DNA of 64,000 nt from a virus (IMGVR_UViG_3300010429_000664:26066-90065); one strand, 5' to 3'. Shown: positions 4,660 to 56,909, numbered from the stretch's first letter. Made by a program: numbers and translations. The notes: generated by a model from the sequence alone, not told the origin.

Positions 4660-4684
4660 CACCAATCGTAAATTTTGTTATAAT
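4656..4684 (+). promoter_or_regulatory. Sigma70-type promoter with extended -10
   Basis: TTGACA (4656-4661), 17 nt, TATAAT (4679-4684), preceded by TGn; AAGGAG RBS and ATG 4725 downstream. Confidence 0.85.
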
Positions 4685-4724
4685 AGATATGTACATTTAT
4701 ATTTTCTAGGAAAGGAGAAATTAT

Positions 4725-8082: not shown

Positions 8083-8088
8083 GTCAAT

Positions 8089-8610
8089 ATGCAACCAGTT
8101 TATTTTATTACCGTAGGCCCGATAGGTATTGAGTCTGGGTTAACAGAAACCATATCAATGCCTAATACCCAAACTGAAGTAGAGTATTTATGGAAAACTC
8201 GAAATGGGTCTATATATCTTTATGCAGTAGGGAGTAGTGGTGGCAGCGGAGCATCGATTGTTACGACCGAAGTACGTAAAAAAATAGTGGTGATAGATGA
8301 CAGTGATTTCGCTCGTGACTTAGTAACAATGAGACTTAGTAGAACCTGTGACTTAATTTATAAAGGAAGTGTTATCATCACTATAGATGCAGCGTGTTTC
8401 TATAACGTGGACCTAAATAAGAAAATATTCGGTCTTAATATCGTAGGTATCGAGTATGACTTTGCTTCATGGACTTGTACCCTAACGGTTCAAACAGAAC
8501 GCGCTTACGCTCGCTCGGTATCTATAAAAGAACGTCCACCTACACAACAAATATTTGCCGATGGTATATCATATAACGGTATACTTGGAGCACCTATAGA
8601 ATGGGCATAA
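8089..8610 (+). CDS. Baseplate-hub-like C-terminal domain (possible read-through continuation of 5848..8082)
   Basis: In frame with the upstream ORF (TAG GTC AAT ATG); KGSVIITID...IVGIEYDF..WTCTLTV resembles terminal hub domains. Confidence 0.45.
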   Translation: MQPVYFITVGPIGIESGLTETISMPNTQTEVEYLWKTRNGSIYLYAVGSSGGSGASIVTTEVRKKIVVIDDSDFARDLVTMRLSRTCDLIYKGSVIITIDAACFYNVDLNKKIFGLNIVGIEYDFASWTCTLTVQTERAYARSVSIKERPPTQQIFADGISYNGILGAPIEWA

Positions 8611-8611
8611 T

Positions 8612-8704
8612 ATGACACTCACTCAGATGTTGCGAAGTATTTTAGCTCGTATTAAGAAACTAGAAGACAAAAAAGACTCTAATTACGCCGTCTATTCGGA
8701 GTAA
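8612..8704 (+). CDS. 30-aa small protein
   Basis: MTLTQMLRSILARIKKLEDKKDSNYAVYSE*, flanked on both sides by TAATATG couplings; below the ORF-track threshold. Confidence 0.55.
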   Translation: MTLTQMLRSILARIKKLEDKKDSNYAVYSE

Positions 8705-8705
8705 T

Positions 8706-9944
8706 ATGCCAAAGTGTCCTAATTGTACCTCTGAACTTGGTCTTTTTACTGACGACCCGATTATTCCAGGCATTACTAGAATACGCGCCGTACATATTCT
8801 TGAATTACAGGCTCGCTGTCACCAAGCCGAAATTGACGGCGGTATTACTCCGCTATCAGTTTTTTCTGAAATATCCGCAAACGTTTCTAAAGTACGCAAT
8901 AATCACATTCAAGAGATTAGAAGTTCCATCGAAAAAATAATGGACAACGACCTAACTACCTATTTTAATTATGACTACGATGGAAATTTTTTAGGAACAG
9001 ATAGAACTGATTGGATTGACAAAGATTTGGTGGCATATGTAAACAAAATACGATATTTGCACATAGAAGACCTGCGACACCCGCTCTTAACAACTTGGAA
9101 AGAAACTTGGAATTTTAGTAGTAGTCTTTCGAATGGTCTTTCAATGTCATCTGCTTTAAATAACAATATTCAGCAGAGCGATATATTTAAAACTTCTTTA
9201 GATAGCGCAAGTAGTTATCAAACATCGACGAACTATCTTTCCCCAGATAAGAATCGAATTTCTTTAGGAACTTTAGCTAACGTTAGCTGCTCTTACGCTT
9301 CTGGTTGGTATTATATCGATGGAACTACTCTCATACAAGGGTCATATGGAACCACGTATCGTCCAAACGGAATAGCGACTGGAGTTCATACAATAAATGA
9401 CGGAACTTTAAGTTGGAATATACTCAGTTCTGGTGTTAATGTAGTAACGGGTCCAACTCGTATTTTGGGTGCTGGTACTCCAGAAAGCCCTTATGTGCCT
9501 CATTTTTATGGTTATTCAACTGCTAACGTGTCTATCTTTCAGAACGTAACCATTACACTGCCTTATGATAAAGATAATAATCCTAAGTGGTATATATTAA
9601 CCACTGGTAGCAAGTTAATTTATACCGGAGCGGCTATTACTTTATATATTATAGAAAAATTAGAAGCCGGACTAGGCGAAGATTATAGTCAGACGTTTAG
9701 TACAGGCGGAACATATGCTTTAGCAGATAGACTAGATTTTAGTAACGGTAGAAGATATTATTTCTACGGTGTTTCTTTGCCTATTGGAACCTCTGCTTCT
9801 TATTCAACATATTATCCAAATGGAATTGATAATCCTCCAGTAACTGTTCCTGAAGTTGTAACTGTAAATTCTGGCGTAATCTCGGCTACTTACGGCACTA
9901 TACGAGTGTCCGCGTTAATTCCAAGTGTTAATCCGAGTATTTAA
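8706..9944 (+). CDS. Tail fibre / receptor-binding-like protein
   Basis: N-terminal CPNC and three R..HI.[ED][LI][RQ] motifs typical of fibre anchor regions, then a Ser/Thr/Tyr-rich beta region. Confidence 0.5.
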   Translation: MPKCPNCTSELGLFTDDPIIPGITRIRAVHILELQARCHQAEIDGGITPLSVFSEISANVSKVRNNHIQEIRSSIEKIMDNDLTTYFNYDYDGNFLGTDRTDWIDKDLVAYVNKIRYLHIEDLRHPLLTTWKETWNFSSSLSNGLSMSSALNNNIQQSDIFKTSLDSASSYQTSTNYLSPDKNRISLGTLANVSCSYASGWYYIDGTTLIQGSYGTTYRPNGIATGVHTINDGTLSWNILSSGVNVVTGPTRILGAGTPESPYVPHFYGYSTANVSIFQNVTITLPYDKDNNPKWYILTTGSKLIYTGAAITLYIIEKLEAGLGEDYSQTFSTGGTYALADRLDFSNGRRYYFYGVSLPIGTSASYSTYYPNGIDNPPVTVPEVVTVNSGVISATYGTIRVSALIPSVNPSI

Positions 9945-9945
9945 T

Positions 9946-10281
9946 ATGATTAAACATGCTGTAGACGATTTTCGTAAATCGAACGGTTCGTTTCAAGTTA
10001 TCTGGGAAAACTGGATAACTGAACGATGTGCCGGTCATTCAAAGGCTATGGCATTTAATCACGGTATATATCATGCCGACTCGATGTGGCTGAATGGACT
10101 AAATGAAGCGGTCTGCTGTTCTCATATTTGGCTAGGCAAAGAGGATATGATTCGATATATGGTATTTGAGCTATTAGGAAAGAGTAACGGACATCGTACT
10201 ATACTGTTGAACTCATGTAGAATGGGCGGACAAGACTATATCGCCGACGGAATGATTTATCTGACGATTAGAGGGATTTAA
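9946..10281 (+). CDS. Minimal CAP (SCP/YkwD-like) domain protein
   Basis: HSKAMA..H, S.GHR.ILL and G......Y.T motif order of CAP domains; start reassigned to the TAATATG-coupled ATG 9946. Confidence 0.6.
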   Translation: MIKHAVDDFRKSNGSFQVIWENWITERCAGHSKAMAFNHGIYHADSMWLNGLNEAVCCSHIWLGKEDMIRYMVFELLGKSNGHRTILLNSCRMGGQDYIADGMIYLTIRGI

Positions 10282-10993
10282 GTTTGTCTAGTATTGCTTT
10301 ACGCTCTTCTTGCTGGTCTATTTTATAATCCAACCGTTTAAAAAACTCGTCATAACTTATTTTCGGTATAATATCTTCTGGTATTTTTGATATGGGGCTT
10401 ACGTTATATATTTTGACGTTTTTAACCGTTAAATAAGGTTCGTAATCTTTTCTGACCCTACCGCTGTCGTTGTAATAAGAAACCTTCCCTATTCCCCGAT
10501 GCAGTATTTCTCCCTGATAAAAATGAGTTATTGGATTTCCTTTTTCGTCTTTTTCGGCTCCTTTAGTAAACGAAGCATTACCAGCGTCCGCTTTTCGTAC
10601 TTCACCGTAGTCCATTCCGAGTAAAAATATATCGCCCTCTCCTAGTAAATAGATACCCATTGTTAGTGCAAATAATCCGCATAGAGAGGACTTATATACC
10701 CCCGTCTTTAATGTGGGGTCAAACTGAGCCGTTTGTTTAAACATATGTAGATTGTTAGGCTTGTCTTTTAGTATATCTCTATGAAAGTTGCCGATTATTA
10801 AAGGTAGATGGCTCATTCTCATACGTTCGTCTATCCAGAACTTATAATCCACAAAGAACTGTACGGTAGGTACGAAATATTTGTAACTATAATTGCAGCC
10901 AAATGTATATTTGTCTTTAAGAAAATCCCATAATCCAAGCGCCAGACCCTCTTTTATGCTGGAACCTCCTCCGATGATGGTTAACTGCCTCAT
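10268..10993 (-). CDS. DUF115/MptE-like (Maf-type) putative glycosyltransferase
   Basis: IIGGGSSI, FGCNYSY, FFVD and IFLLGMDY motifs of the DUF115/Maf fold. Confidence 0.55.
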   Translation of the reverse strand: MRQLTIIGGGSSIKEGLALGLWDFLKDKYTFGCNYSYKYFVPTVQFFVDYKFWIDERMRMSHLPLIIGNFHRDILKDKPNNLHMFKQTAQFDPTLKTGVYKSSLCGLFALTMGIYLLGEGDIFLLGMDYGEVRKADAGNASFTKGAEKDEKGNPITHFYQGEILHRGIGKVSYYNDSGRVRKDYEPYLTVKNVKIYNVSPISKIPEDIIPKISYDEFFKRLDYKIDQQEERKAILDKLKSL

Positions 10994-26102: not shown

Positions 26103-29100
26103 TCACTCATCTTCGGCATCTCCTTCTTTTACTTTTATACCAAATTCTTTAAGTAGGTCTGCCTTCCATCCCAAAGCCACGAAGATTTTCTCGATTTTTG
26201 TGTGAATATTACGCGATATCATTTTTGGCCAATTAACCTTTGCCGTCTCAATATGTGAAAAGCACTCGTCATCGAATGCAAGCACGTCTTTTTTAGTAGT
26301 AACTGATTTGACTAGAGATTTTAATTCGTATTTATTTAAATCTCCGTTTCCTTTCATCAATTCTTTCTTATCAGCTATAGTGCATTTTTTACCTGTATCT
26401 TTATTAAAATACCAAGGCATCTCAACTTCTTCTGTTACTGAACCTCCATCTGCGTAGATATAATAAAACGAGGAACCGCTGACCGGTTTAAATTCAGGCG
26501 TGTTATCGATTGCCCGCAAAAAAATCGGCACGTTCTTATATGCCTCCCGTGGTTTACTAATCTTGCAGGGAAAGGCGACGTTTGACAACGGCTCCTCGGT
26601 TATTTTCTTTTCCTGTTCTTTTATCCACGCTATTATTTCTCCCTTGGGTTTATCATTTAGAATTAGTTCAATCAATTCTGTCTGAAATTTTTTCATAAAC
26701 GTTGAACTATTTCCACTCCAATACGATTTTCCGTTTCTCATTACAAAAATAGTATGATGAGGTTCAACTTCTACACAATATATTTTTCCTTTATAATATT
26801 TGGTTTTTATTTTGTGAGGTTCTATCGTAAAAAACTTGTTTGAATTTTCCGATATTTTATAATGTATTCCTCCTACATTTGCCCAATGGTCTACAATCCA
26901 TTTTTGATGGGGTTCTACTATAATACGCTGTATTGTTGCGCTTATACCGGTTTTGCAAATAATTTCGTGAAGGTCGTGAGCCATCTGTTTGCTACTAGTA
27001 GTATAGAATTTTTGATTGTTGATAATATAACCATCTCCAGCGCAATAGGCATCCAATAATATTTGAAGCAAATCAGGACTGGCTTGTTTTGCATACGTTG
27101 GAATTAATTTATTTTCTGCGTGTTTACCATATTTGTTTAATTCCAACGCTAAAAGTTTATCTTTTATTTGATATTTTGTTTCCTCTTTATCTCTATAAAA
27201 ATAAATACCTAATTTCAAAAGCAGTTTTTCAATTTGTCTGCACTTGTCAGGATTGGCGTTTTCTGATTGTGCTATATCTATTTCATAGATATTTTTTTGT
27301 TCGTTTATATAGACGTTTCCCTCACTTAAATACCAACCGAGCAATTCGAACCAATCCGAAAGGTCTATAGATTTTTCGTTGTATTGTCGGCGTACCAATC
27401 CGGTTAAAGTAATTTTACTACCTAAATTTACTCCGGTCCATTTAAAATATTTCTGAGATGTGAAAACTGTTTTGGTGTGTTTGATATCTTTAATTGACTT
27501 AAATTTGTCGTGGTCGTTTTGAGAGTATTGGGCGGTTCTTTGGAGAAACTGGTGATTTGGTGTCACACAGAAATCTACGGATGTATTGTTGTAATTAAAC
27601 ATCGTTCCGGTATAATCTTCGCAAATTATTTTTTTAATCGGGTAATAATCCGCTAAATTAGTATGTGGATTTAAACTAAGCACCTTATCGTTTAAGGTCA
27701 AATCTTTAAACAAAGTCCATCCTTTATCAGTTAAAACTTTAGTTTGACCGTCGAAACAGTCCTTGCGTTTCATTTCCACGCCTTTTACAACCTTTTTCAG
27801 TTCTCCCTTCTCATTACGCAAGTATCCTACATATCGGCACTTAGCTAGAATTAATATCTTTTCAAAAACGCCTTCATACGCGAACTGAATATTGACTTCT
27901 GGTTTTCCAAAAGTTTGGCCCCATTCTTTTATGAGGTTGTTCATTAGGTCGGTTAAATTGTCGTTTGAACAGACGTATACGCTATCCGTATCTATATATA
28001 GAACTTCGTATCCCTTTTCGGCAAGTTTGTCTTGTACAAAATGCAATAGACTTCTGACTAGCCATGTCGTTCCTCCTGCTACATTTAAATCAAAAAGTCT
28101 AAAGAATCGCATACCAAACGTGCCATAATGAGCATTCACGCACGATTTAATAGCAGCATATCGTATTTCATTTTCTTTATATTCGGGAGTATCGACCGCG
28201 CACGATTCTAAATCGTTTTTAATTTTCGACTTCAATTGAACTGCCTTCCTCATAATTGTAGGCAGTAGGGCTTTGTCATTTTGCTTAAACCATACGTCGT
28301 TTATTTTTATACAACCTTCTTCGTATACTTGCCTCACGTTGGCCGGGTCTAGACAGAAATTTATAATAGCCCAGGGATAAGCAGAGCCAATGTCAAATGC
28401 TGAAATCCCGTTAAACTTTCCGGTTTTAAACGCAACTCGATAAGCTCCTTCAAACTCTTGTCGCTCTTCGTCTTCATTAACAACCGGTTTATTAGGTAGA
28501 ACAACCTTCTGCTGTTTAGCTTCCATAAGTAACAAATTATCTACTACTCGGCTGTAGAAAGTCATAGACTCCCAATCTACTTTGCTAAGTCGTCTTATTT
28601 CATCGTGAAACTCCACCAGTTTAAACTTATTTTCTAGATTCATTAGGATTTGAACGTCTTCTTGATTACGATACTTAACCTCATCGGATATTTTATTAAA
28701 ATCGACTTTAGAAAAGGTTTTACCAACTCCAAGATGTTTTTTTGCAATATGGTCAAGTGTATACTGTTCTTCTTTATTAAGCGTTATTTTTTTAAACCAA
28801 CTCAGATAATCAACTATGGAAGTTCCTATTGGGTACATTACTCCGTCTTTTCCGTATCGAGATTTGCCGACCGGACTAATAGCCTCTGCAAACGACTTTG
28901 ACTTACGAACACCAAATAGACGTTCCCATCTAGCAGACAGATACGGTATATCGAAATCAATATTCCATGCCATTAATATGTCAAACGCTTCTAGTTTCAA
29001 GTATTCGGCAAATGATTGAAGCATTAACTCTTCATCGTTGTTGAATTCAGGAAGAAAAAAGGTCGTTATCTCATCACAAAAATTTGAAATCACTGATATG

Positions 29101-29468
29101 CAGGATATCTTGAATTTAGGATTTTCAGCGGAAGGTAATTCGGAACACTTCATTTCTACGTCAAAAAAACCGAATTTAATCGCGGTCTTATCTAGAGTAT
29201 CTACTTTGTCTATTAAGTATCTTTGTGGAAAGCTCACGTCACTTTCATAAGCGTCGTGACCGGCAGATTTACGCATTTCATTTGGGTCTCCTCCTAGTAT
29301 TTTACGAAGAGGTTGGCCGGTGTAGGATTTGCAAGTTCCTGTGGAAGCGTAGGATACGTAATAGTATGGATAGAAGTCGTTTACTTCCTCTATCGATTGT
29401 ACACCATTCGAGTCGCGTTTAAAAATATATAGCAAACGCTTATCATTGTGCAAATTGACAATGTTCAT
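26103..29468 (-). CDS. polB: Family B DNA polymerase with intein
   Basis: Exonuclease motifs FDVE, AWNI.FD, Y...D; polymerase motifs DIGSAYP, KSCVNAHYG, YIDTDS, KGVE..R.D. Confidence 0.95.
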   Translation of the reverse strand: MNIVNLHNDKRLLYIFKRDSNGVQSIEEVNDFYPYYYVSYASTGTCKSYTGQPLRKILGGDPNEMRKSAGHDAYESDVSFPQRYLIDKVDTLDKTAIKFGFFDVEMKCSELPSAENPKFKISCISVISNFCDEITTFFLPEFNNDEELMLQSFAEYLKLEAFDILMAWNIDFDIPYLSARWERLFGVRKSKSFAEAISPVGKSRYGKDGVMYPIGTSIVDYLSWFKKITLNKEEQYTLDHIAKKHLGVGKTFSKVDFNKISDEVKYRNQEDVQILMNLENKFKLVEFHDEIRRLSKVDWESMTFYSRVVDNLLLMEAKQQKVVLPNKPVVNEDEERQEFEGAYRVAFKTGKFNGISAFDIGSAYPWAIINFCLDPANVRQVYEEGCIKINDVWFKQNDKALLPTIMRKAVQLKSKIKNDLESCAVDTPEYKENEIRYAAIKSCVNAHYGTFGMRFFRLFDLNVAGGTTWLVRSLLHFVQDKLAEKGYEVLYIDTDSVYVCSNDNLTDLMNNLIKEWGQTFGKPEVNIQFAYEGVFEKILILAKCRYVGYLRNEKGELKKVVKGVEMKRKDCFDGQTKVLTDKGWTLFKDLTLNDKVLSLNPHTNLADYYPIKKIICEDYTGTMFNYNNTSVDFCVTPNHQFLQRTAQYSQNDHDKFKSIKDIKHTKTVFTSQKYFKWTGVNLGSKITLTGLVRRQYNEKSIDLSDWFELLGWYLSEGNVYINEQKNIYEIDIAQSENANPDKCRQIEKLLLKLGIYFYRDKEETKYQIKDKLLALELNKYGKHAENKLIPTYAKQASPDLLQILLDAYCAGDGYIINNQKFYTTSSKQMAHDLHEIICKTGISATIQRIIVEPHQKWIVDHWANVGGIHYKISENSNKFFTIEPHKIKTKYYKGKIYCVEVEPHHTIFVMRNGKSYWSGNSSTFMKKFQTELIELILNDKPKGEIIAWIKEQEKKITEEPLSNVAFPCKISKPREAYKNVPIFLRAIDNTPEFKPVSGSSFYYIYADGGSVTEEVEMPWYFNKDTGKKCTIADKKELMKGNGDLNKYELKSLVKSVTTKKDVLAFDDECFSHIETAKVNWPKMISRNIHTKIEKIFVALGWKADLLKEFGIKVKEGDAEDE
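26709..27758 (-). mobile_element. 350-aa intein with LAGLIDADG endonuclease in PolB
   Basis: Begins CFDGQTKVLT, has TPNH block B, LLGWYLSEG and LLDAYCAGDG LAGLIDADG motifs, ends RNGKSYWSGN followed by Ser+1. Confidence 0.92.
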
Positions 29469-38017: not shown

Positions 38018-38281
38018 TTATTTCTCCTTATATTTATAACATAAATACAGTGTTGTACTGCAACAAATAAAAGCAATAGAATGAGATGCAAGTAATACAT
38101 ACTGGCCTGATAGAATACACGCTGTAAAAAATGTCACATAAGCAAGCCAGCAAAGAATGAAGTACCAGACTGAGATATCCTCTACCGATTTTCTACGTAG
38201 TATTTTAAAAATTTGCGGTCCGTAGTTAACAGTCCACGCGAAACCTGCGAAAAGGAACAGTAGATTACTTAGATTTTTCAC
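38018..38281 (-). CDS. SemiSWEET/PQ-loop three-helix membrane protein
   Basis: YGPQIFKILRRKSVEDIS PQ-loop motif, three hydrophobic helices; likely GTG start 38281 with GAGG RBS. Confidence 0.8.
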   Translation of the reverse strand: MKNLSNLLFLFAGFAWTVNYGPQIFKILRRKSVEDISVWYFILCWLAYVTFFTACILSGQYVLLASHSIAFICCSTTLYLCYKYKEK

Positions 38282-40154
38282 GTTGTACCTCTTCCACTGT
38301 TTTAACCAATTTTGTTGACCAGTCGTAGAGACACGGAATCTCAAACGTTCGAAGGTGCATTTTCGGTCTCCGAATTAGGTCTAATTGTATTTTTGTTCGT
38401 GTTCCGTCTCCGCCTTCTTCATGTAAATATCTTGCTAAGACAGACGGAAACTGGCCTACTTGGTCCGAGGCAAAAAACTCTCCATTCTCTCTCAACTGAG
38501 CAAAACATATCATAAACGAATTGCTACGTTTTATTTTACTAATCATGGTTCCGTATACATTATCAGTACGAGCAAAGTCTTTTGGCTTTAACCAATCGTA
38601 AATTACGATTGAATCGGGTTTCAAAATAATGTTATCATAATCATCTTCAAAACAGTGTTCAAAATCTCCTTCTTTCATCCCCAATTTTAATGCTGTTTCA
38701 TCAAATCCACTATCACTTTCAGTATATATGTAATAAGGTTTTATACCTTGGTCTACCAGGCGTTTTAGAATATTCATCGCAAAGGTCGTTTTGCCTCGTT
38801 TGTTACTACCACCCATAAGTACAAGACTGGTCTGTTTTAAATGGACGAACTCATCCAAATATGGCATCTTAAATTGAATTGGGGTTGTTACCGTTAATAA
38901 ATTAGTTTCCCATTTCATATCTCGGACGAGTTTATATTCTCTATTCTGCTTAACAATCTTCATTTCCTTCATAAGATAGTTCAAAACTTTATCTATACGT
39001 TGTTTATTTTCGCCCTTCGCTCTGTCGCCAAAAACAAAAGTTTCAATTTCCTGTTTAAATGCGCTGTCTGTTAACTTTAAATAGCTTACAACTTTACTTG
39101 CCAAATCTTCTTCATCAAAAGAAATATACTTAGACAGGCTTTGAACCATAGCTCTAACGGATTTACGGTCCATCGGATGTTCAAGCAAGTGGTCGTTCAG
39201 AACGTTTAATGCAAATTCAGTTTGTTGCTCGTTTAATTCTTTTCTAAATAGTCCTCCGATTTTTACAAAAGAAGAATTACAGCATCCATCTAGACCGTTA
39301 TTAATCAACTTCAAGTCTTCCGGTTTTATTTTAAAGTTTTCTGTTGCTATTTCTTCTTTAATTTGCTCACTAATCGTCTTTTTTGGCGTTTCAATATAAG
39401 CGGCTAAAAACTGATACACTTCCAGTGACATATCAACTATTTCGTGATTCACCATTTGTCGAGATTGACCCTTAACAATAGACGGGAATAATACAACTTG
39501 CCCTCCATCGTTTTCGATGTCTATTTTTAATTCCTTTATTCCTGTCTTCGGAAGCATCTCGTTATATTTGAAAAATAGATGATAACCTTTTTGCGTGATT
39601 TGATAAAGAGTTTTATTAAGATAAGGTTCCAGTATTTCTGGAATCTTTTGACAATCAATATCGATGACCGTTATTTTACTTCGGTTTCCTGTTTTTACAC
39701 CTATATTAAGCCCCTGCTCAAGCCACTCTAACCATTCTTCTTTGTTAGTATGTGTTTTGTTTGGCCAATCTTTTTCAATAGGGTTTTTTCCTCCAGCAGC
39801 TACAGGAACTAGGTCAAATCCGAATTTTTCGTAAGCATTACAAATATCTAAAAAATCTCTTTTCGTTTTTTCAGTGATAACTTTAAGGTCCAATATCTCG
39901 TTCAATAAACTAAAACACTCGTCGTCTGACTTATCCATCATATCGTCTTCGTGCATACGAATAACGTCAAACAAATCGAGTTTAACTCCACAGGCTAGAC
40001 ATGAGATAAAGGGCTGATTAGGAGGAACGTTTGCTCCGTCCTTCTGCCCGCATGAAGGACAGTCAAGGTGTAGCATTCCGCCTGTTTTCTTTGTTTTAAC
40101 TTCTTTGTATTTGAGATAATCGCGTAGGTACTGATGAAACTGGGTTATATCCAT
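38265..40154 (-). CDS. Zinc finger + bifunctional primase-polymerase + P-loop helicase-like domain
   Basis: CPSC..CLAC; Prim-Pol motifs KNP, NIGVKTG, VIDID, HLFF, IDI...GGQVV; C-terminal GGSNKRGKT. Confidence 0.82.
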   Translation of the reverse strand: MDITQFHQYLRDYLKYKEVKTKKTGGMLHLDCPSCGQKDGANVPPNQPFISCLACGVKLDLFDVIRMHEDDMMDKSDDECFSLLNEILDLKVITEKTKRDFLDICNAYEKFGFDLVPVAAGGKNPIEKDWPNKTHTNKEEWLEWLEQGLNIGVKTGNRSKITVIDIDCQKIPEILEPYLNKTLYQITQKGYHLFFKYNEMLPKTGIKELKIDIENDGGQVVLFPSIVKGQSRQMVNHEIVDMSLEVYQFLAAYIETPKKTISEQIKEEIATENFKIKPEDLKLINNGLDGCCNSSFVKIGGLFRKELNEQQTEFALNVLNDHLLEHPMDRKSVRAMVQSLSKYISFDEEDLASKVVSYLKLTDSAFKQEIETFVFGDRAKGENKQRIDKVLNYLMKEMKIVKQNREYKLVRDMKWETNLLTVTTPIQFKMPYLDEFVHLKQTSLVLMGGSNKRGKTTFAMNILKRLVDQGIKPYYIYTESDSGFDETALKLGMKEGDFEHCFEDDYDNIILKPDSIVIYDWLKPKDFARTDNVYGTMISKIKRSNSFMICFAQLRENGEFFASDQVGQFPSVLARYLHEEGGDGTRTKIQLDLIRRPKMHLRTFEIPCLYDWSTKLVKTVEEVQREKSK

Positions 40155-40156
40155 CG

Positions 40157-40546
40157 TTAGTCCTGTTTTTTAACTCTCTTAACCGGAACGTTAAATCTTG
40201 TAAAGCACCGTTTGCATTTTGAGCACTCTTTACGCTTTATATCGCACCAAGTAAATCTCCATATACTTCCGCATCGATTTGGATAGTACATGTAAGTAAT
40301 CCAATATGTATAGAGAACAACAACTATACCGCTTGTCCATATAATTAACTGAATCCAATCCAACTTAAAAATAGTCCATGCCATTACTGTTGTATGTGTA
40401 AATAAAGACGTTAAAAGAAAAGACCTAGAAACGGATTTAGATGTTTTACATTTTTTAATTTTATTAGCAGCAAAAAAATATTTTACCGAATCCAAAATTC
40501 CGGCAAATAAGGTAATAGCCGCAAAGGAAAACTCAAAAAACGTCAT
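40157..40546 (-). CDS. Divergent SWEET/PQ-loop-like membrane protein with Cys tail
   Basis: Three hydrophobic helices around K..K.K.SKSVS; KY replaces PQ; C-terminal C..C.RC. Confidence 0.5.
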   Translation of the reverse strand: MTFFEFSFAAITLFAGILDSVKYFFAANKIKKCKTSKSVSRSFLLTSLFTHTTVMAWTIFKLDWIQLIIWTSGIVVVLYTYWITYMYYPNRCGSIWRFTWCDIKRKECSKCKRCFTRFNVPVKRVKKQD

Positions 40547-40816: not shown

Positions 40817-40845
40817 ATTATAGCATTGACGAACCTTCGTGTCAA
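40817..40845 (-). promoter_or_regulatory. Sigma70-type promoter
   Basis: TTGACA-17-TATAAT with TGn; AAGGAG RBS and ATG 40798. Confidence 0.85.
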
Positions 40846-41950: not shown

Positions 41951-42673
41951 TCAAAATTTGTAGTCCTTGTTTTTTGAATTAAAGTCATAATTGGTTAACC
42001 CTGCATCTAATTTCAGATATTGAAACATATAAATAGCCGTTATTTTGTTATGCCAATCGTATAGGATTACTCTAACGGGAATACCGCTTTCTTTATCCAA
42101 GTTAATAAATGCTCGATAAGATTGATATTCTGGTTTTTCTGGACATATTCGTTCGAAGGAATACGTATTAAACTCGCCTATTTTCTGAGTTCCGTGAAAT
42201 TTGAACTTACATTCTTCGTCTTTTTCAGCAATTTTATACTGCTGTAAAAGTAAGGTCATTAAATTTTCTAGGGTAATATCTTTAATAGAGCGATTAGATT
42301 CAGCCTTTAGTCTGGGGTCGTCAAGAGCCACATCTATCGAAGGTATAAACATGCCCAGTAATCCCTCTAAGTGAACTTTTAGTTTATTGTCGTTCTCGCC
42401 TTCAACATATAAAACCTCTCTGTCCTTTTTAACTCCAGCGGTCCACTTGAGATATAATTTAAATGGCTTTTTAAATTTAACTATAATAGTTTCTGCTTCT
42501 TTTAGTTTTCCGTTTACCGAATCTTGTTTAACAAATATAGCTTTATAATTATCTATTTTCTGAGAGGTGCTTAATCCCTGCCCTAACAGTGCTATAGGCG
42601 ATACTTCAATATTTAGATAGCAATATAGAACAAGAAGCATCAGTAGCAGTAATATCATGTAAAATTTACGCAT
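41951..42673 (-). CDS. DUF1571-like exported protein (LolA/RseB-like fold suspected)
   Basis: N-terminal hydrophobic signal; Y.A.F.KQD.V.GKL...E.I.VKF.KPFKLYLKW....DREVLYV.G.NDNKL pattern; start reassigned to ATG 42673. Confidence 0.7.
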   Translation of the reverse strand: MRKFYMILLLLMLLVLYCYLNIEVSPIALLGQGLSTSQKIDNYKAIFVKQDSVNGKLKEAETIIVKFKKPFKLYLKWTAGVKKDREVLYVEGENDNKLKVHLEGLLGMFIPSIDVALDDPRLKAESNRSIKDITLENLMTLLLQQYKIAEKDEECKFKFHGTQKIGEFNTYSFERICPEKPEYQSYRAFINLDKESGIPVRVILYDWHNKITAIYMFQYLKLDAGLTNYDFNSKNKDYKF

Positions 42674-42928
42674 ATTAATCAAAATATGTAGGGGTTTTAA
42701 GTAAGAGAGCATCTGTAAATCTAAGAACGTCACATCGATACATGCCAAAAACTTCGTCTCCATTTTCATCGGTTATAATCGGGCAGGTATTGACACCGGC
42801 AATATCACAGAACTGCTCCCATAAAGTACCGATTTTTTTAACTTTGGCTCGTTTCATAATATATTTTTTCGTTTCTTCTATAGTAAGTCCTTCCGAGTAT
42901 TTCCCAAATTTACGAATATCTATCTTCT

Positions 42929-43039
42929 TCATATTATCTCCTCTAGAACGATTTTAATATTCGCTGACCAGTGGTTAATTAACATATAGAATACGAACGC
43001 TAACCCGGAATAAGTTCCAAGAGCAATAAGAAGTAGCAT
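42929..43039 (-). CDS. 36-aa single-pass membrane peptide
   Basis: Hand-translated MLLLIALGTYSGLAFVFYMLINHW...; not in the ORF track. Confidence 0.5.
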   Translation of the reverse strand: MLLLIALGTYSGLAFVFYMLINHWSANIKIVLEEII

Positions 43040-43046
43040 AAAATAT

Positions 43047-43691
43047 TTATATAAAGAAGACATATATCACCAATAGAAGTTGAGCTATTGTTAAAAATAT
43101 AAAACCATATCGAGTAATCTTTGCAAGAAACGCCGGAAATTTTTTAATCTTTTTTTCTAACAAAAGCAACCATACAAATCCTCCGTCTAGGGCAGGAATA
43201 GGAAGAAGATTAAAAGCAAAACAAACGATGTTAATTAATTCTAACTGAAGTAGAAAATCATTGGGATTATAAATACGAAATAATTGTAGAAGCGCGTGAG
43301 GGTCTTGTAAAAATAATGCCGTTATTAAAGTATAATCTACATAAAGTCCGGCAAGAACAGAACCATAGTTCAGCCAGTAGCAAATTACCGCTATTAATAA
43401 GTTTGCAGCGACTCCGGCGGTTAAAATAATGAACTTATATCTGTACTTCTGAGCTAAAAATCCGTTTTTAGCCTTGGTAAGTTCACCTTTTAGATTAACA
43501 AAACCGCCTAATAACCACGGAGTTATTCGTATTTCGGTCTTTTTTATCTTGTAGGATAGATAAGGCTTCCCAAATCCAATAGAAAAAACATCAACGCCGA
43601 CTCCGCACCAAATCGCAGCCAGCAGATGACCCATCTCATGACAAATGATAGAGGTCATAAGACCGATAAATATATAAAGAGCTTCAATCAT
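43047..43691 (-). CDS. M50 site-2 (RseP-type) intramembrane metalloprotease lacking PDZ
   Basis: HEMGH (HExxH), FSIGFG, GGFV, AG..ANL, NLLPIPALDGG. Confidence 0.92.
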   Translation of the reverse strand: MIEALYIFIGLMTSIICHEMGHLLAAIWCGVGVDVFSIGFGKPYLSYKIKKTEIRITPWLLGGFVNLKGELTKAKNGFLAQKYRYKFIILTAGVAANLLIAVICYWLNYGSVLAGLYVDYTLITALFLQDPHALLQLFRIYNPNDFLLQLELINIVCFAFNLLPIPALDGGFVWLLLLEKKIKKFPAFLAKITRYGFIFLTIAQLLLVIYVFFI

Positions 43692-44038
43692 ATTGACTTT
43701 CGAAAGTAGTGTTCTATCTTTTTAAATTCATGATACGGCATAGTTATCATTCCACATCTAAACTCGTCTAATCTATAAGATATATGCACATACTTTCCGA
43801 GGCTACGAATGATTTCTATATTTGTTATGAATTTTATCGGTATATTACCCAGCGATGTGTATAATATGCCATTTTCAACCGTCGGTAAATCGCTTACAGG
43901 ATGTACCTGAACAATTTTCGGTTTATCTACCTTAATAACTGCGGTATTTTTATCTTCCAGACCCAACATTACTAGAAGTGTCAGGCATACAACGAGAAAA
44001 AAGATAGCGATTGCATCGGTAATATTGAACTTCTGCAT
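43688..44038 (-). CDS. Single-pass membrane protein
   Basis: 116 aa with one N-terminal TM (AIAIFFLVVCLTLLVMLGL), between the two membrane proteases. Confidence 0.65.
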   Translation of the reverse strand: MQKFNITDAIAIFFLVVCLTLLVMLGLEDKNTAVIKVDKPKIVQVHPVSDLPTVENGILYTSLGNIPIKFITNIEIIRSLGKYVHISYRLDEFRCGMITMPYHEFKKIEHYFRKSI

Positions 44039-44793
44039 TATACACCTTCTAGAAATTTAAGGATTTTTGATAGTCGTATGCAATAACCGTATGTCTCGGT
44101 TACTCCGTTTGTATTAAGAATAGCAACTGAATTTGTTACTCCAATCAGTTTTCCTTCGTACATGAGACCGCCACCTGAATTACCGAAAAACATTTTATTT
44201 GTAATAAAGTATCCCTTTTCATCTATTTTAGCGACAATTCCATTGCTGATAACATCTTCTATTCCGCCTGGATTCCCAACAAGATATACCGTACTTCCAA
44301 CAACAGGAACCCTATCAGATAATTCAATAGTCGGAACGTTCAACTCTGATACACGATAAAGGGCCAAATCATTTGTTCGGTCTATCTTAACAAGAACCAT
44401 TCTCCTCCAAAGAGGAGACTTGGTAACAACGCTTAAAATTTGATTATCTTTTGACGTTAGATGCGAGCACGTTAATACATACTTTTTTCCTTTATATGTA
44501 ATATACGTACCAGAACCAAGACCTTGTATCTTCCGGTTCATCAGAAGAAGGTTCGATTTCAGCATATCTTCTGAATTAGGCAGGTCTATATTCAACTTAG
44601 TAGTAAAGGTTTTTTCGAGTTCTTCTGTTGCGTCTCCAATTACTTCTAAAGTTTCCCGGTCTTGACATGCCATATCATCCAGAAGAGTGTACACTGATTT
44701 CATCTGATTTTCATATTGAATAACAAATTTGTTAATTTCATAAGCAGAAAACACTACGACACACATTAGTAGAAATATTGCTAAATTTTTCAC
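44038..44793 (-). CDS. Membrane-anchored trypsin-like serine protease (no PDZ)
   Basis: N-terminal TM; triad TCSH, NDLAL, GNSGGG. Confidence 0.9.
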   Translation of the reverse strand: MKNLAIFLLMCVVVFSAYEINKFVIQYENQMKSVYTLLDDMACQDRETLEVIGDATEELEKTFTTKLNIDLPNSEDMLKSNLLLMNRKIQGLGSGTYITYKGKKYVLTCSHLTSKDNQILSVVTKSPLWRRMVLVKIDRTNDLALYRVSELNVPTIELSDRVPVVGSTVYLVGNPGGIEDVISNGIVAKIDEKGYFITNKMFFGNSGGGLMYEGKLIGVTNSVAILNTNGVTETYGYCIRLSKILKFLEGV

Positions 44794-45383
44794 TTCTTAC
44801 TCCTTTTGGCTTTAGGTGTTCTGTTTATCACCGAGTTGGTTATTATATCATCAATCATACCTTTTTCGAGACACTCTGCCGGAGATAACCATAGTTCTCC
44901 GTGAGTAGCTTTAAGTAAATCGTCTGGAGTAAGTTTGGTATGAGTTGAAAGAAGTCTAGTAGACTGTTCTTGCAAACGTTTCAAAAAGGCCACTCTATCA
45001 ATAACTTTAGTTGTATAGTCGCCCCATACGCCACCGGCCATATCGTGACCCATCCATACAGAATTTTCAGTCATATAACGTGTGTTGCCAACAACAGATA
45101 TTAAACCGGCCATGGAAGCTGCTTCTCCGGAAACAACAGTAATGATTGGGCTATTAACACTTAGTAGTGTGTCAATAAGGGCAAATCCATCTGTAACACT
45201 TCCGCCCGGAGAGTTAATATGTAAAATAATAGGAGCCACTTTAATTTGTTCTAATACTATTATTTTTTTAACTAACTCCTCTACTACTTCTTGCCCAACT
45301 TCTTCGTAAAGAAAAAGCTGCCGCTGAGAAAATAGTACTCGGTCCAAATCAAATTTTCCGTTTTTCAGTAAATCCTTTTTCAT
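44790..45383 (-). CDS. clpP: ClpP-like protease
   Basis: INSPGGSV.DG, GEAASMA, MGH; Glu (HGELWLS) at the position of the triad Asp. Confidence 0.85.
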   Translation of the reverse strand: MKKDLLKNGKFDLDRVLFSQRQLFLYEEVGQEVVEELVKKIIVLEQIKVAPIILHINSPGGSVTDGFALIDTLLSVNSPIITVVSGEAASMAGLISVVGNTRYMTENSVWMGHDMAGGVWGDYTTKVIDRVAFLKRLQEQSTRLLSTHTKLTPDDLLKATHGELWLSPAECLEKGMIDDIITNSVINRTPKAKRSKK

Positions 45384-45618
45384 TTGACCTTTCCTGTTCT
45401 CACAGCAGCAGCCGTGATTTTAGTTACGAGGTTTCCTATTCTTTGAAAAATCTTGATTATTTTCCGGCTTTGACTGTTCGCCGATACCACGATTATTAAT
45501 ATATTTCTCGATTTGATTACCGTAATCGTGACCGTCTTTTGTCTTCTTTTCTTCGTCATTAAGTGCTGTAGCCACACATAAACAAATAACCAAAGCTAGA
45601 ATAAATTGCATTGTCACC

Positions 45619-46113
45619 TCACTTTGTAATAAGGTCGAGTATACGGAAGTAGGCTCCTTCAACGGCATCAAGGTAGTCCTTAACATCTTCTGGCGAATTA
45701 AATCCCTTACCTGCCATAACCCTACTGATTCCCTCTACCGCTGATTTCATAGCACACTGACGAATAATCTTGTCCTGTTCTTCCGGAGACTTAGCATACG
45801 ACTTCTTATATTCTGGCTTTGGAGCCGGAGGAGTTGCCTTTGTTTCTGTAACCGGAGCCGAAGCTGCAACAGTTTCTGTCTTAGGAGTAGCCACGGGTTC
45901 TGGAGATTTACAGGAAACGACTATACGTTCAATAAAGTCCTTCTTATCAACTTGTTTAAGTGTAAGTTCAACTTCGGTTTCAGACTTTAAAGACTTCTTA
46001 GCATAATGAAAAACTGCTTCGGAGCAATCAATCCACCGTTCCTTCGTGTTGTCGTCCTTCCGAATCTTCAGCATGAATTGTGACCCCTTCTGAAACGCTG
46101 CTAGAAACTTCAT
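45619..46113 (-). CDS. Putative ssDNA-binding protein
   Basis: OB-like N-part, P/A/T-rich linker, IIRQCAMKSAV motif; adjacent to the exonuclease. Confidence 0.35.
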   Translation of the reverse strand: MKFLAAFQKGSQFMLKIRKDDNTKERWIDCSEAVFHYAKKSLKSETEVELTLKQVDKKDFIERIVVSCKSPEPVATPKTETVAASAPVTETKATPPAPKPEYKKSYAKSPEEQDKIIRQCAMKSAVEGISRVMAGKGFNSPEDVKDYLDAVEGAYFRILDLITK

Positions 46114-46957
46114 TTTTAACTCCTTTTTTAAGTTTTTTCTTTAGTTTCTTCTTTTCTTCTTTTTTACAACACTGCTCGTACGTAATTACATTCAAATTAT
46201 TTTCGTATACCGAGGCCATCCTTTCTCGTAAACTTCTGAACGGAAATAGGTCTACTAACACTTCTTCTTTAGGCGAAATCCTAGCCAACGATTCTATTAT
46301 AGCACATTCGACTGATGGTGGCAAGCATAAAAGATTAACTAATGTTTTTCTGCGTTCGTAGTCTTCTTCTGTTAAAATTGGGTTTATAAGATTGTCCGTT
46401 TTCTCTTTTTCAATTTTTTTAGCTATTAGTTTATAGGCGTTAAAGTTCGGAGGAGGAACTAAGTATGCTCCCTTAACACCTCCAAATTTTTTAAGAATCG
46501 AAAATATTTTAACGTTTGGATATAGTAATAGCTGTTGCCAATCGGCATCATAAGACACTAAAACTATTTCTTTGTCAGTATATTTTCGACATATAACGGC
46601 TGCAATATCGTCGGCTTCTATTTTAGGTATTTGTATGAAGTGCCAGTCTGTAGATATGTCAAGTTGATTAGCTAGGTCATTAAAACGCTCGAATAAGTCA
46701 TCCCAGTCTATTGCTTCTTCGGCATCACGCTTTTCTTTACGGTCGGCTTTATATGTAGGGTCTAGGTCTTTTCTCCAGTTTCCTCTTCCATCTCTAGCTA
46801 CGATTACTTCGTCGTCAGTTGACAATCCTATTTTTTTAAGTGCAGATATCATCATAGATAAGGCGATATACTCTGGAGGAACGCTCTTATTCCACTTAGA
46901 GGAAAAAATTGAACGAAAAACGAATATAGAGTAGTCTAATACTACAATCTTACTCAA
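46028..46957 (-). CDS. 5'-3' exonuclease / T4 RNase H-like flap nuclease
   Basis: LDYS, ARDG..NWRK...P.YKADR, EADDIAA, S.DADW.QL. Confidence 0.88.
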   Translation of the reverse strand: MSKIVVLDYSIFVFRSIFSSKWNKSVPPEYIALSMMISALKKIGLSTDDEVIVARDGRGNWRKDLDPTYKADRKEKRDAEEAIDWDDLFERFNDLANQLDISTDWHFIQIPKIEADDIAAVICRKYTDKEIVLVSYDADWQQLLLYPNVKIFSILKKFGGVKGAYLVPPPNFNAYKLIAKKIEKEKTDNLINPILTEEDYERRKTLVNLLCLPPSVECAIIESLARISPKEEVLVDLFPFRSLRERMASVYENNLNVITYEQCCKKEEKKKLKKKLKKGVKNEVSSSVSEGVTIHAEDSEGRQHEGTVD

Positions 46958-50132: not shown

Positions 50133-50161
50133 AGTATAACATATCACTTACATGGTGTCAA
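50133..50161 (-). promoter_or_regulatory. Sigma70-type promoter
   Basis: TTGACA-17-TATACT with TGn; AGGAG RBS and ATG 50110. Confidence 0.8.
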
Positions 50162-51337
50162 GCACTTCTTTATCTTTAAAAAGGGAATAAAAATTAAACA
50201 CATTGCCGTAGTTATTGCCGATATAATAATCAAACAATGCAGACCTACTATCGGATACAGCCATCCTCCAATAGCTTCAGAAAACATACCGCCTAAATTC
50301 AACACTGACATAATAAGAGCAAAGGAAATAGCTTCGGCATACCTAGGAACTATCTTTACGCAGAAATCCATAACACAAAGATGGCTAATCATTCCTGTTA
50401 TTGAAAATAGAGCGGTATATATTAAAGCAACCAGCGCGTTAGGATAATAAAGATAACAAAGTGTTGTAATTGACCCGATAGATATTGTGTAATACAGAAG
50501 TTTTTTGATATTTACCCGATTACACATCTTAAAGTATATTGCCGCTCCTATCATTCCAAATGCCGAGCCGACAGAACCAAGTACACCAATAAATATCTTG
50601 CTTAATTGTAAGTGGTCTCTTTGAAGAAACATAAGAGCCGTTCCAAATCCCGGCGTTGTCCATAGAAAAAACAAAAAACAAATGGAAATCCAAAGTTGTT
50701 TGCATCTGAAAGCTTTAACAATACTGGCAAGACACTGTTGCTTCATTGACTTCTTAACTTTGTCTTCTTTATAACTGAAAATAAAAAAGATAAGAGATAG
50801 AAATACGAATCCAAAAAGAATTAAAAAAGCGTATCTATAATGCAGATACTCCGCTAGTAGTCCTCCTCCTAAACCTACTATTAACGCAGCTAGACTCGAT
50901 GCTCCCCATTGGACAGACTGTGTTTTTCCAGAAATATTATATTTTTGCCCTACTTGACATGCAACTCCGTCCGTAACTACGTCCGAGAAAGCAATCGCAA
51001 ATGCAAGTATAAGTTCTACAATAATTAACGATATAATAGTAAGGCCGAAATAAAATACGTAAAGACACGATAAAAGAACTAGAATATAACATATTATTAG
51101 ATAGGATTTTCTTCGATAACCAAAGAGTGGCCAAGCATCGGATATAAACCCGTAAACGAACTTAATTACCCACGGAACATGTATTAGAACACCAAGATAA
51201 GCAATCTGACTTACCGTTAGGTGAAAAGAATCTTTTAGTAGATAGAAAAGATTTTGACTAGGAATAGCCGAGAATCCCTGTGTAAAGTATATGATAAAAA
51301 AGAATATATAGTACTTGAGATATTTATTCTTCTTCAA
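50144..51337 (-). CDS. MFS transporter of the BT1 folate-biopterin family
   Basis: About 12 TM helices; PWVIKFVYGFISDAWPLFGYRRKSYL and FSDVV.DG motifs. Confidence 0.8.
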   Translation of the reverse strand: MKKNKYLKYYIFFFIIYFTQGFSAIPSQNLFYLLKDSFHLTVSQIAYLGVLIHVPWVIKFVYGFISDAWPLFGYRRKSYLIICYILVLLSCLYVFYFGLTIISLIIVELILAFAIAFSDVVTDGVACQVGQKYNISGKTQSVQWGASSLAALIVGLGGGLLAEYLHYRYAFLILFGFVFLSLIFFIFSYKEDKVKKSMKQQCLASIVKAFRCKQLWISICFLFFLWTTPGFGTALMFLQRDHLQLSKIFIGVLGSVGSAFGMIGAAIYFKMCNRVNIKKLLYYTISIGSITTLCYLYYPNALVALIYTALFSITGMISHLCVMDFCVKIVPRYAEAISFALIMSVLNLGGMFSEAIGGWLYPIVGLHCLIIISAITTAMCLIFIPFLKIKKCLTPCK

Positions 51338-56099: not shown

Positions 56100-56909
56100 C
56101 TATTTTCCAACCGCCTTTCTGTATACTTCCTCGATATGTTTATTATTTAACTGAGCATATATCATAGTCGTCTTTATATCTGAGTGTCCAAGCAACTTGC
56201 TGACAACTGAAATATCGACCCCATTCATAATAAGATGTACCGCATAAGAGTGCCTGAAGAGATGAGGATGTAACGTTAATCGCTTGAAGTTCGGCTTAAT
56301 TGTTTTGAATATATAGTTTATTCCTGCCCTACTAACGTTAAAAGCGTTTGTTTCCTCGGATTCTATACTAAAATACGCATCTAGTATCTTTGTTACACGG
56401 TCTGGAAAGAATACTTCTTTCTCCGTATGATTTTTTGTTGAGTATACTTTCGCTTTCCTGTTTATTAAGTCTATACTTGCTCGTTTAATTGAACAAAGCT
56501 CCCCTCTACGTACTCCTGTATAAAACATAAAATAAAGTATAGCCTTAACTCTTATAGCGTTCAGAAAAAGATAATCAACTGCCGGAATAATTTCATTAGT
56601 AAACTCCTCCTCGGTTATGTATTTTGGCAGTGTCTTTGGTACTTTTTGATGCTTCGGGAACTTTACCTCAATGCCCTTATACCTACAGAAACTGGTTAAT
56701 GCACGATTATAAGAATTAATAGTGTTAGCACTACATCCCTCCTTCTGTTTATTAGAAAGAAAAGACATAATCTTATCTTCGCTTATATCCAGACTGCCGT
56801 GAAACTTTTCATAACAAACCATACGACTATCGTATGTGTCAATAGAAGCCTCGGAAAGCCCGTTTACGCGCATCCAGTCTATGTAGTTATCGAGTTCTTT
56901 ACTCATCAC
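56100..56909 (-). CDS. Tyrosine recombinase (XerC/D-like)
   Basis: TGVRRGEL, TKN, HLFRHSYA, LLGHSDIKTT.IY catalytic R-K-H-R-H-Y set. Confidence 0.93.
   Translation of the reverse strand: MMSKELDNYIDWMRVNGLSEASIDTYDSRMVCYEKFHGSLDISEDKIMSFLSNKQKEGCSANTINSYNRALTSFCRYKGIEVKFPKHQKVPKTLPKYITEEEFTNEIIPAVDYLFLNAIRVKAILYFMFYTGVRRGELCSIKRASIDLINRKAKVYSTKNHTEKEVFFPDRVTKILDAYFSIESEETNAFNVSRAGINYIFKTIKPNFKRLTLHPHLFRHSYAVHLIMNGVDISVVSKLLGHSDIKTTMIYAQLNNKHIEEVYRKAVGK

Follow-up and report, generated by a model that had tools for sequence, protein, structure and literature searches.

A candidate envelope-proteolysis cluster of PDZ-less DegS-like and RseP-like genes and a ClpP-like gene in an uncultured ~90-kb tailed-phage lineage

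We analyzed a 64,000-nt window of viral DNA (IMGVR_UViG_3300010429_000664:26066-90065, corresponding to positions 26066-90065 of an IMG/VR virus record that is 90,065 bp long and rated as 98% complete) and found on its minus strand, at positions 45383-41951 of the window, a block of seven genes running in one direction that includes derivatives of three bacterial proteases, namely a ClpP-like serine protease, an HtrA/DegS-type serine protease (Tryp) and an RseP-type site-2 protease (S2P) of family M50 (here called M50). All coordinates are those of the whole window unless stated otherwise. The catalytic motifs of the block proteases are intact, activity being predicted from them, and neither Tryp nor M50 retains a PDZ domain. 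We tentatively interpret the block as an accessory set of "envelope proteolysis" genes belonging to an uncultured lineage of ~90-kb tailed phages, whose sensor-less derivatives of the three enzymes would serve as an unlicensed toolkit against single-pass membrane proteins, a reading that we regard as plausible yet somewhat short of probable. The initial annotation of this DNA had proposed a phage version of the DegS/RseP/ClpP/RseB cascade; the parts do resemble those of the sigmaE apparatus, but the analysis did not bear out a cascade that is dedicated and fixed, given the variable gene content and the lack of a sigma factor, a ClpX and an anti-sigma-like substrate. Every open reading frame (ORF) that it listed was recovered in our ORF list at the same coordinates on the minus strand, although its gene list was incomplete, having passed over an 85-aa ORF (p85) before the last gene of the block, and the small membrane peptide that it gave as 36 aa exists and is 44 aa long from the first ATG (36 from an internal Met).

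Proteases, exported protein and small membrane proteins of the block

M50 matched Peptidase_M50 (PF02163) with 113.4 bits against a cut-off of 27.2, and the residues of its HExxH motif in TM1 and its NxxPxxxLDG motif in TM3 (H18, E19, H22, N161, P164, L168, D169 and G170) were invariant in 28 homologues, which agrees with its earlier designation as an RseP-type enzyme. Also invariant in these homologues was the G62-G63 pair of "PWLLGGFV", a stretch between the first and second transmembrane (TM) segments that matches, by motif similarity and not by structure, the membrane-reentrant loop of RseP (P65-L66-G67-G68-Y69-V70), in which the Gly-Gly pair is functionally critical (PMC4597795). Four TM segments were predicted in the M50 homologue of the nearest relative (contig L012) and in most other members; all topologies given here are based on hydropathy and the positive-inside rule. 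No PDZ domain was matched in M50 by Pfam, and the spacing between TM2 and TM3 is just ~40 residues. PDZ-bearing cellular RseP homologues covered ~45% of the M50 query, aligning only on the two sides of their PDZ insert; M50 is therefore an RseP-type enzyme that lost the PDZ tandem. The NCBIfam RseP model (TIGR00054) gave 85.8 bits against a cut-off of 147.55, with the best stretch confined to residues 11-109, and the NCBIfam equivalog cut-offs were missed by all of the block proteases.

The nearest solved relatives of Tryp were DegP-like (1.5e-12) and DegS (5e-11 to 1e-9) proteins. Its catalytic triad (H111, D142 and S206) was invariant across 13 homologues, all of which begin with an N-terminal hydrophobic segment (within residues 1-27) that is a predicted anchor, hydropathy being unable to separate an anchor from a cleaved signal peptide; the description of Tryp as a TM-anchored trypsin-like protease with an H-D-S triad was thus upheld. 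Pfam matched no PDZ domain in Tryp, which stops directly after the protease domain, where DegS continues into the PDZ domain with which it senses the C-termini of OMPs, so that the claim of two missing PDZ domains holds for both enzymes. The NCBIfam DegS model scored 54.5 bits on Tryp (cut-off 422.95). Membership in a known defence or anti-defence system was also considered and rejected, since PADLOC returned just weak RT-protease matches to the trypsin domain.

The ClpP-like protein scored 120.7 bits against CLP_protease (PF00574; cut-off 20.2) and is the product of the only CLP_protease gene in the genome. Solved ClpPs in the PDB aligned with it from end to end (E 2e-20), and opposite their catalytic Asp stood a Glu, as had been pointed out before; this Glu lies in a "GELWL" motif in most of the phage homologues, and Ser, His and Glu were kept in most of 23 aligned ClpP-like sequences, a truncated ORF (L045:14771-15169) being the obvious exception. 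Because the third position is Glu and not Asp, the protein departs from the Ser-His-Asp triad, and catalysis with Glu is putative. All NCBIfam ClpP models fell under their cut-offs (best 107.9 vs. 228 bits), as did the model for ClpP-related head maturation proteases (NF045542; 90.6 vs. 120 bits), and the top PHROG matches were "head maturation protease" families (phrog_94, 4e-36).

The last gene of the block encodes an exported protein of family DUF1571 (PF07608; 144.6 bits vs. a cut-off of 27), for which 1729 library homologues were found at E <= 0.001, with 23-38% identity among the matches listed. An AlphaFold2 (AF2) model built from 64 homologues (pLDDT 95.6) was placed by Foldseek in the LolA superfamily. 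In VIA-align comparisons, RseB (2p4b) came first by Z score (Z 14.8, root-mean-square deviation 3.6 A over 175 residues, 19% identity), the match covering RseB residues 26-206 only, but it was tied with the Thermus protein 2yzy (14.5), the Bacteroides LolA-like protein 4mxt (14.3) and MucB (14.1), with LprG (11.9) and LolA (~10) following; generic LolA-like proteins are thus structurally equal, while sequence identity was highest to RseB (18-19%). The expected LolA/RseB-like fold was accordingly found, as one domain only, the RseB C-terminal domain being absent, and there was no match to the MucB_RseB Pfam family at E <= 0.1. Bacterial DUF1571 homologues are exported proteins or lipoproteins, and no sigma or anti-sigma genes were seen in a bacterial DUF1571 neighbourhood. 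The phage protein probably binds a lipid or lipoprotein. The phage-borne copy occurred only here and in the nearest relative (L012-14), in 0 of 35 other related phage records, and this distribution marks DUF1571 as a recent add-on and not as a conserved part of a machinery. No paper mentioning the family was found in the literature searched.

Two small membrane proteins flank M50. TM116 is a predicted single-pass protein with a cytoplasmic part of ~5 residues and a type II orientation, with which the basic N-termini of its homologues agree. Its beta domain gave weak PH-like structural matches (Z 5-6.6), with bPH-like hints. Homologues of TM116 were restricted to L012-14 and G005/L023, their genes lying between Tryp and M50 in every case, so that the gene is known from three phages in all and is a recent addition to the block. 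An anti-sigma-like or RseA-like identity was considered for TM116 and set aside, there being no Pfam or PHROG family and an outer domain that is only weakly PH-like. TM44 has a positional equivalent in L012 (a 49-aa TM ORF) and a weak match to phrog_20523 (3.4e-4). The idea of a conserved small single-pass partner beside M50 was likewise dropped, since no such partner is general in this lineage.

Table 1. Window coordinates of the block genes and of the other features discussed
Feature	Position	Strand	Description	Support
Candidate promoter of the block's unit	46296..46324	-	TTGcCAC-17-TGCTATAAT, TG extension; inside the FEN gene	11/12 match
p164	45619..46113	-	164-aa soluble protein	between FEN and ClpP in most lineage relatives looked at
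Possible secreted peptide	45420..45611	-	63 aa; signal-peptide-like N-terminus ending ATA/LN (AxA site), rest highly charged	read from sequence, weak
ClpP-like protein	44790..45383	-	serine protease, 197 aa, putative Ser-His-Glu	Pfam PF00574, E 8.7e-35
Tryp	44038..44793	-	HtrA/DegS-type serine protease, PDZ-less, with a predicted membrane anchor; 251 aa, GTG start	Trypsin_2, E 2e-18
TM116	43688..44038	-	predicted type II single-pass membrane protein, 116 aa; candidate substrate	AF2: TM helix 6-26, disordered juxtamembrane linker 27-47, small PH-like beta domain 50-110
M50	43047..43691	-	PDZ-less RseP-type site-2 intramembrane metalloprotease, 214 aa, predicted 4-TM core	PF02163, E 1.3e-32
TM44	42929..43063	-	predicted single-pass peptide, 44 aa from first ATG, overlaps the M50 3' end; candidate substrate	G-T-Y-S-G mid-TM
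p85	42675..42932	-	85-aa soluble protein	Jackhmmer match in L012-14
DUF1571 protein	41951..42673 (or to 42769)	-	exported, N-terminal hydrophobic helix, single LolA/RseB-N-domain-like fold	PF07608, E 3.5e-42
Next perfect phage-type promoter	40817..40845	-	TG extension; downstream end of the predicted unit	12/12 match
Tape-measure gene	1211-4222	+	structural arm	

Recurrence of the protease genes in related phages

A profile search with M50 recovered 66 IMG/VR loci, and gene patterns around M50 were obtained with Jackhmmer over these loci. The complete block recurred in the nearest relative only, represented by three Logan contigs (L012-14) at 57-60% protein identity, with the gene order FEN, a 62-aa protein, p164, ClpP, Tryp, the TM116 homologue, M50, a small TM ORF, p85, DUF1571, dCMP deaminase and phosphoesterase. 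Co-conservation of the block in related phages was thus found in this one close relative and broke down elsewhere, where M50, ClpP and DUF1571 are individually missing. Members of the closer lineage (L016, L017, L020, L021 and L024) carry FEN-p164-ClpP-Tryp followed by M50 after 0.7-2 kb, the genes being reordered in L006, L008 and L022; in more distant phages ClpP lies 0.5-5.6 kb from M50 and is near-adjacent to it in L044 and in the 117-150-kb phages L053, L054 and L058. Altogether, ClpP lies <10 kb from M50 in 21 loci, from phages of ~70-100 kb up to L053, L054 and L058, and M50 stands alone in ~35 loci. Among M50-bearing IMG/VR records, Trypsin_2 was present in 23/29 and CLP_protease in 19/29, often tens of kb from M50. 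By comparison, 50,697 GenBank phage records yielded only 3 matches to M50 and 13 to Tryp, several of them bacterial sequences, and a reciprocal search for Tryp-bearing phages gave four loci, three of which were on contigs already found.

The same region of related phages appears to gather protein-processing genes: a peptide deformylase gene lies between Tryp and M50 in L006, L017, L021 and L022, and genes for an M17 leucyl aminopeptidase (L008:12181-13056) and an MgtC-like protein (L008:9736-10200) lie nearby in one relative. No peptide deformylase gene was found in the genome of the phage studied here.

Genome arms, predicted transcription unit and host

The genome is divided into a plus-strand structural arm and a long minus-strand arm that encodes DNA polymerase B, primase, RecA, RuvC, RNA ligase, FEN, dCMP deaminase and dNMP kinase, and it is in the latter that the protease block is situated. 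Its genes follow one another in the transcription order ClpP-like, Tryp, TM116, M50, TM44, p85, DUF1571, and neighbouring genes overlap by 1-17 nt at five of the six junctions (ClpP/Tryp 4 nt, Tryp/TM116 1 nt, TM116/M50 4 nt, M50/TM44 17 nt and TM44/p85 4 nt), the remaining one (p85/DUF1571) being a 1-nt gap. One promoter form, cTTGACAC(g/c)A-N-TG(c/t)TATAAT, which is of the sigma70 type with an extended -10 and a spacer of N17/18, is shared by both arms (e.g., 40845-40817, 55582-55554 and 4656-4690), and the candidate promoter of the block equals the extended form of the 12/12 promoters in both arms. Given the promoters at 46324-46296 and 40845-40817, the predicted transcription unit also takes in p164, dCMP deaminase and phosphoesterase.

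Upstream of the block, p164 matched no Pfam or PHROG family, and the order FEN-p164-ClpP was recovered by Jackhmmer in L006, L008, L012, L016, L017, L020, L021 and L024. The 235-bp gap directly upstream of ClpP is occupied by the ORF for a possible 63-aa secreted peptide, which is not conserved in the nearest relative, L012 having just 36 nt from p164 to ClpP. Like p164, p85 had no family match in Pfam or PHROG, and a nucleotide search of GenBank phages returned no similarity.

Several other genes were recorded along the genome. On the minus strand, 38018-38344 and 40157-40546 encode a half-transporter of the SemiSWEET kind (NCBIfam SemiSWEET_2, 4e-8) and a related multi-TM protein of 129 aa, the latter recurring ~5-7 kb from M50 in many related phages; together with a BT1/MFS folate-biopterin-type transporter (50144-51337; Pfam 5.9e-32), these make up an inner-membrane cargo that is unusually rich for a phage. 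The DNA polymerase B ORF (1121 aa, 26103-29468, minus strand) also matches thymidylate-synthase and anaerobic ribonucleotide reductase PHROG profiles over residues ~555-840, which fall in its middle and C-terminal part, and could be a fusion or contain an inserted element. Outside the window, a 947-aa ORF at genome positions 7533-10376, probably the large terminase, contains an intein splicing domain and a LAGLIDADG endonuclease (Pfam 2.6e-17 and 6.3e-14), and the left end of the record (genome 1-150) consists of tandem 15-bp repeats in which ACAAGTCTGCACCGG alternates with ACAAGTTTGCACCGG. Possible signs of a temperate lineage are a tyrosine integrase (Phage_integrase, 8.6e-28), encoded at 56100-56909 on the minus strand, and the provirus classification of some related IMG/VR records.

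With respect to the host, the ends of the "provirus" relative G030 proved to be phage genes, a search of 185,579 species genomes with a primase profile turned up no prophage, and matches to the M50 profile were limited to distant RseP-type genes of cellular origin, spread over many phyla, the best partial identities (39-46%) being to Saccharibacteria/Patescibacteria. DNA polymerase B is ~26% identical to cyanomyovirus polymerases. GGAG Shine-Dalgarno sites are common genome-wide and, judged from the sequence, these sites and the shared sigma70-type promoter form argue against a Bacteroidota host. No Sigma70_r2 domain was found anywhere in the phage genome, which extends to the whole genome the earlier statement that a sigma factor is not visible in the window, and nothing resembling a sigma or anti-sigma gene was detected in the phage; a substrate may be encoded by the host.

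Proposed function, alternatives and known systems

In bacteria, an HtrA-type enzyme and a site-2 protease are the canonical site-1/site-2 pair; DegS deprived of its PDZ domain is deregulated and constitutively active, and RseB shields RseA until it is displaced by lipid signals. The PDZ tandem of RseP acts as a size-exclusion filter, the substrates of S2P enzymes include type II single-pass proteins, small membrane proteins such as the HokB toxin, and remnant signal peptides (PMC10470546), and TM residues that destabilise helices favour S2P cleavage (PMC10470546; PMC4597795). RseP without its PDZ domains cleaves RseA without a prior site-1 cut, i.e., it is deregulated (Kanehara 2003 as cited in PMC10470546). 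On the proposal that we prefer, the cluster would be transcribed from a sigma70-type phage promoter along with genes for replication and nucleotide metabolism; the anchored enzyme of HtrA/DegS type would trim the periplasmic part of type II single-pass membrane proteins, and the mini-RseP would cut such proteins within the membrane with no need of licensing, since it has no PDZ size-exclusion filter. The ClpP-like protease, together with a host unfoldase, may then finish the released fragments. The topologies, the substrates, the order of cleavage, the partnership of ClpP and the links among the proteases all belong to this proposal. Candidate targets would be the phage's own adjacent TM116 and TM44, or host single-pass proteins, e.g., anti-sigma factors and small membrane toxins or effectors. 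A more far-reaching version, in which phages of this lineage and of other uncultured ones would use their sensor-less DegS- and RseP-like proteases as an unlicensed intramembrane-proteolysis device that fires host anti-sigma/ECF (extracytoplasmic function) switches or destroys small membrane toxins and defence effectors (Hok-type toxins, abortive-infection pores), with the ClpP-like enzyme clearing the fragments and the LolA/RseB-fold protein tuning the process, strikes us as decidedly unlikely.

Comparative data count against a common function of the cluster. M50-less control relatives were located through the primase. G030 (100% complete) keeps Tryp and ClpP and lacks M50, and a blastn comparison of G038 with its sibling L021, both of which keep Tryp and ClpP, showed that the whole ~710-bp M50 gene is present in one (L021:9965-10663) and absent from the other (26 bp at L088:5386-5412) between flanks that are ~75% identical. 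In G005 (96% complete) the order is FEN-p164-Tryp...TM116...M50 with ClpP precisely absent, and other M50 phages that are nearly complete likewise lack ClpP. In evolution, no protease of the three is thus dependent on the others, and the site-1 and site-2 enzymes are not obligately co-inherited, as G030 and G038 demonstrate. Gene order varies, with peptide deformylase and zinc-ribbon proteins lying between Tryp and M50 in relatives; TM116 is missing from 34/35 other related records, and neither it nor TM44 is kept across M50-bearing phages. In the ClpP-like protein the axial-loop region is replaced by a basic N-terminus (short here, short or long across homologues), and no gene for a ClpX-type unfoldase was found in the phage genome, the single weak AAA match being RuvB-like. 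Because tight packing is a general trait of phage genes, the overlaps within the block are weak evidence, and because Tryp occurs throughout the lineage with or without M50, much of the co-occurrence may reflect shared ancestry. Tryp and ClpP are the backbone of the lineage, and the presence/absence pattern of M50 suggests that it is gained and lost as a cassette; since DUF1571 and TM116 are recent arrivals besides, the comparative data describe a loose toolkit and not a fixed three- or four-part machine.

These data are what would be expected if the genes were independent accessory ("moron"-like) genes clustered in a variable part of the early arm, each with a separate job, such as general proteostasis in the company of the deformylase and M17 aminopeptidase of relatives, and with no common substrate or pathway: each is dispensable on its own in relatives, DUF1571 is missing from 35/35 and TM116 from 34/35 of the other related records, the order is variable with unrelated genes intervening, and the same region of relatives gathers host-like genes (peptide deformylase, M17, MgtC, BT1/MFS and SemiSWEET). 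We nevertheless consider this explanation to be on the unlikely side, although it deserves serious weight, because HtrA-like and M50 genes, both of extreme rarity among cultured phages, occur together in 23/29 M50-bearing records of very different genome size, because M50 and ClpP are near-adjacent in the 117-150-kb phages L053, L054 and L058 as they are in this lineage, and because an HtrA-type enzyme with an S2P is the canonical bacterial pairing. That the ClpP-like protein is a head-maturation (prohead) protease having nothing to do with the membrane proteases appears improbable. Its top PHROG families bear that name, the NCBIfam ClpP-like prohead models score about as well on it as the cellular ClpP models, its basic N-terminus is unlike ClpP axial loops, and no other prohead family (S78, S77 or S49) was detectable in the genome, a null result that carries no information, since the structural genes have diverged too far to be recognised and annotated. 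The gene, however, lies in the replication arm on the strand opposite to the structural module, between FEN/p164 and the membrane proteases in most of the relatives examined; its product is stand-alone, of ClpP length and matches ClpP from end to end, it falls below the threshold of NF045542 (Clp_rel_HeadMat), and it is precisely missing from the syntenic G005 and from other near-complete M50 phages.

We further weighed a constitutive DegS/RseP/RseB mimic that would cleave a host anti-sigma factor, so that the ECF envelope-stress regulon is switched on, or modulated with the help of DUF1571, to the benefit of the phage, and we judge it quite improbable. The list of parts does match the sigmaE apparatus, DUF1571 tied for best structural match with RseB/MucB and had its top identity to RseB, and the deregulation of DegS that lacks its PDZ domain would fit. 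So would the cleavage without a prior site-1 cut that PDZ loss permits in RseP (Kanehara 2003 as cited in PMC10470546). Against this stand the lack of a phage sigma or anti-sigma gene, the sigma70-type and not ECF-type promoters of both arms, from which it follows that phage transcription is not visibly ECF-dependent, and the properties of DUF1571, which has neither the RseB C-terminal domain nor a MucB_RseB Pfam match, is absent from all other related phages and has a bacterial context without sigma or anti-sigma genes. A related idea, the release of a host ECF sigma factor for phage late genes, was ruled out, as the promoters of both arms are of the same sigma70 type (cTTGACAC-N17/18-TGyTATAAT).

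In bacteria, site-2 proteases govern sporulation, virulence and the response to envelope stress, and they also control how small membrane toxins are removed. In the literature searched there was no functional study of a phage-encoded site-2 protease, and the one paper in which M50 appears, on a river metagenome, lists it among viral "auxiliary genes" (PMC12993620). The minimal PDZ-less RseP is found in a sizeable group of uncultured phages (66 IMG/VR loci), often with HtrA-like and ClpP-like genes. If the enzymes act on host membrane proteins, they would represent a new route of host takeover or anti-defence via site-2 proteolysis and would provide a natural minimal S2P (~210 aa) for studying substrate choice without a PDZ filter; should they be no more than housekeeping additions, the cluster is a case of ordinary phage gene shuffling.

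Compared with known systems, the unlicensed toolkit that we favour resembles the E. coli sigmaE pathway (DegS-RseA-RseP-ClpXP, with RseB) in having an anchored HtrA-type protease, a group I M50 enzyme (HExxH, LDG and GG loop), a protease of the ClpP type and an exported protein folded like the RseB N-domain. It differs in that both PDZ modules are gone, that there is no RseA-like substrate, sigma factor or ClpX, that the C-terminal domain of RseB has no counterpart and Glu takes the place of Asp in the ClpP triad, and that the genes are phage-borne, individually dispensable among relatives and below the NCBIfam equivalog cut-offs. With the clearance of small single-pass proteins by RseP (PMC10470546) it shares the catalytic core, two small candidate type II substrates flanking the phage M50, whereas by analogy the phage enzyme, having no PDZ filter, should accept larger outer domains as well. 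The ClpP-like protein shares the ClpP fold and comparable profile scores with the ClpP-related head maturation proteases (NF045542, phrog_94), but is encoded away from portal and capsid genes, scores below the cut-off and is absent from a near-complete syntenic relative. The DUF1571 protein, finally, has the single LolA-type fold, modelled with high confidence, of the LolA-like, DUF1329, LolA3 and RseB-MucB N-domain lipid- and lipoprotein-binding proteins, yet forms a Pfam family of its own, the phage copy of which is confined to this phage and its nearest relative.

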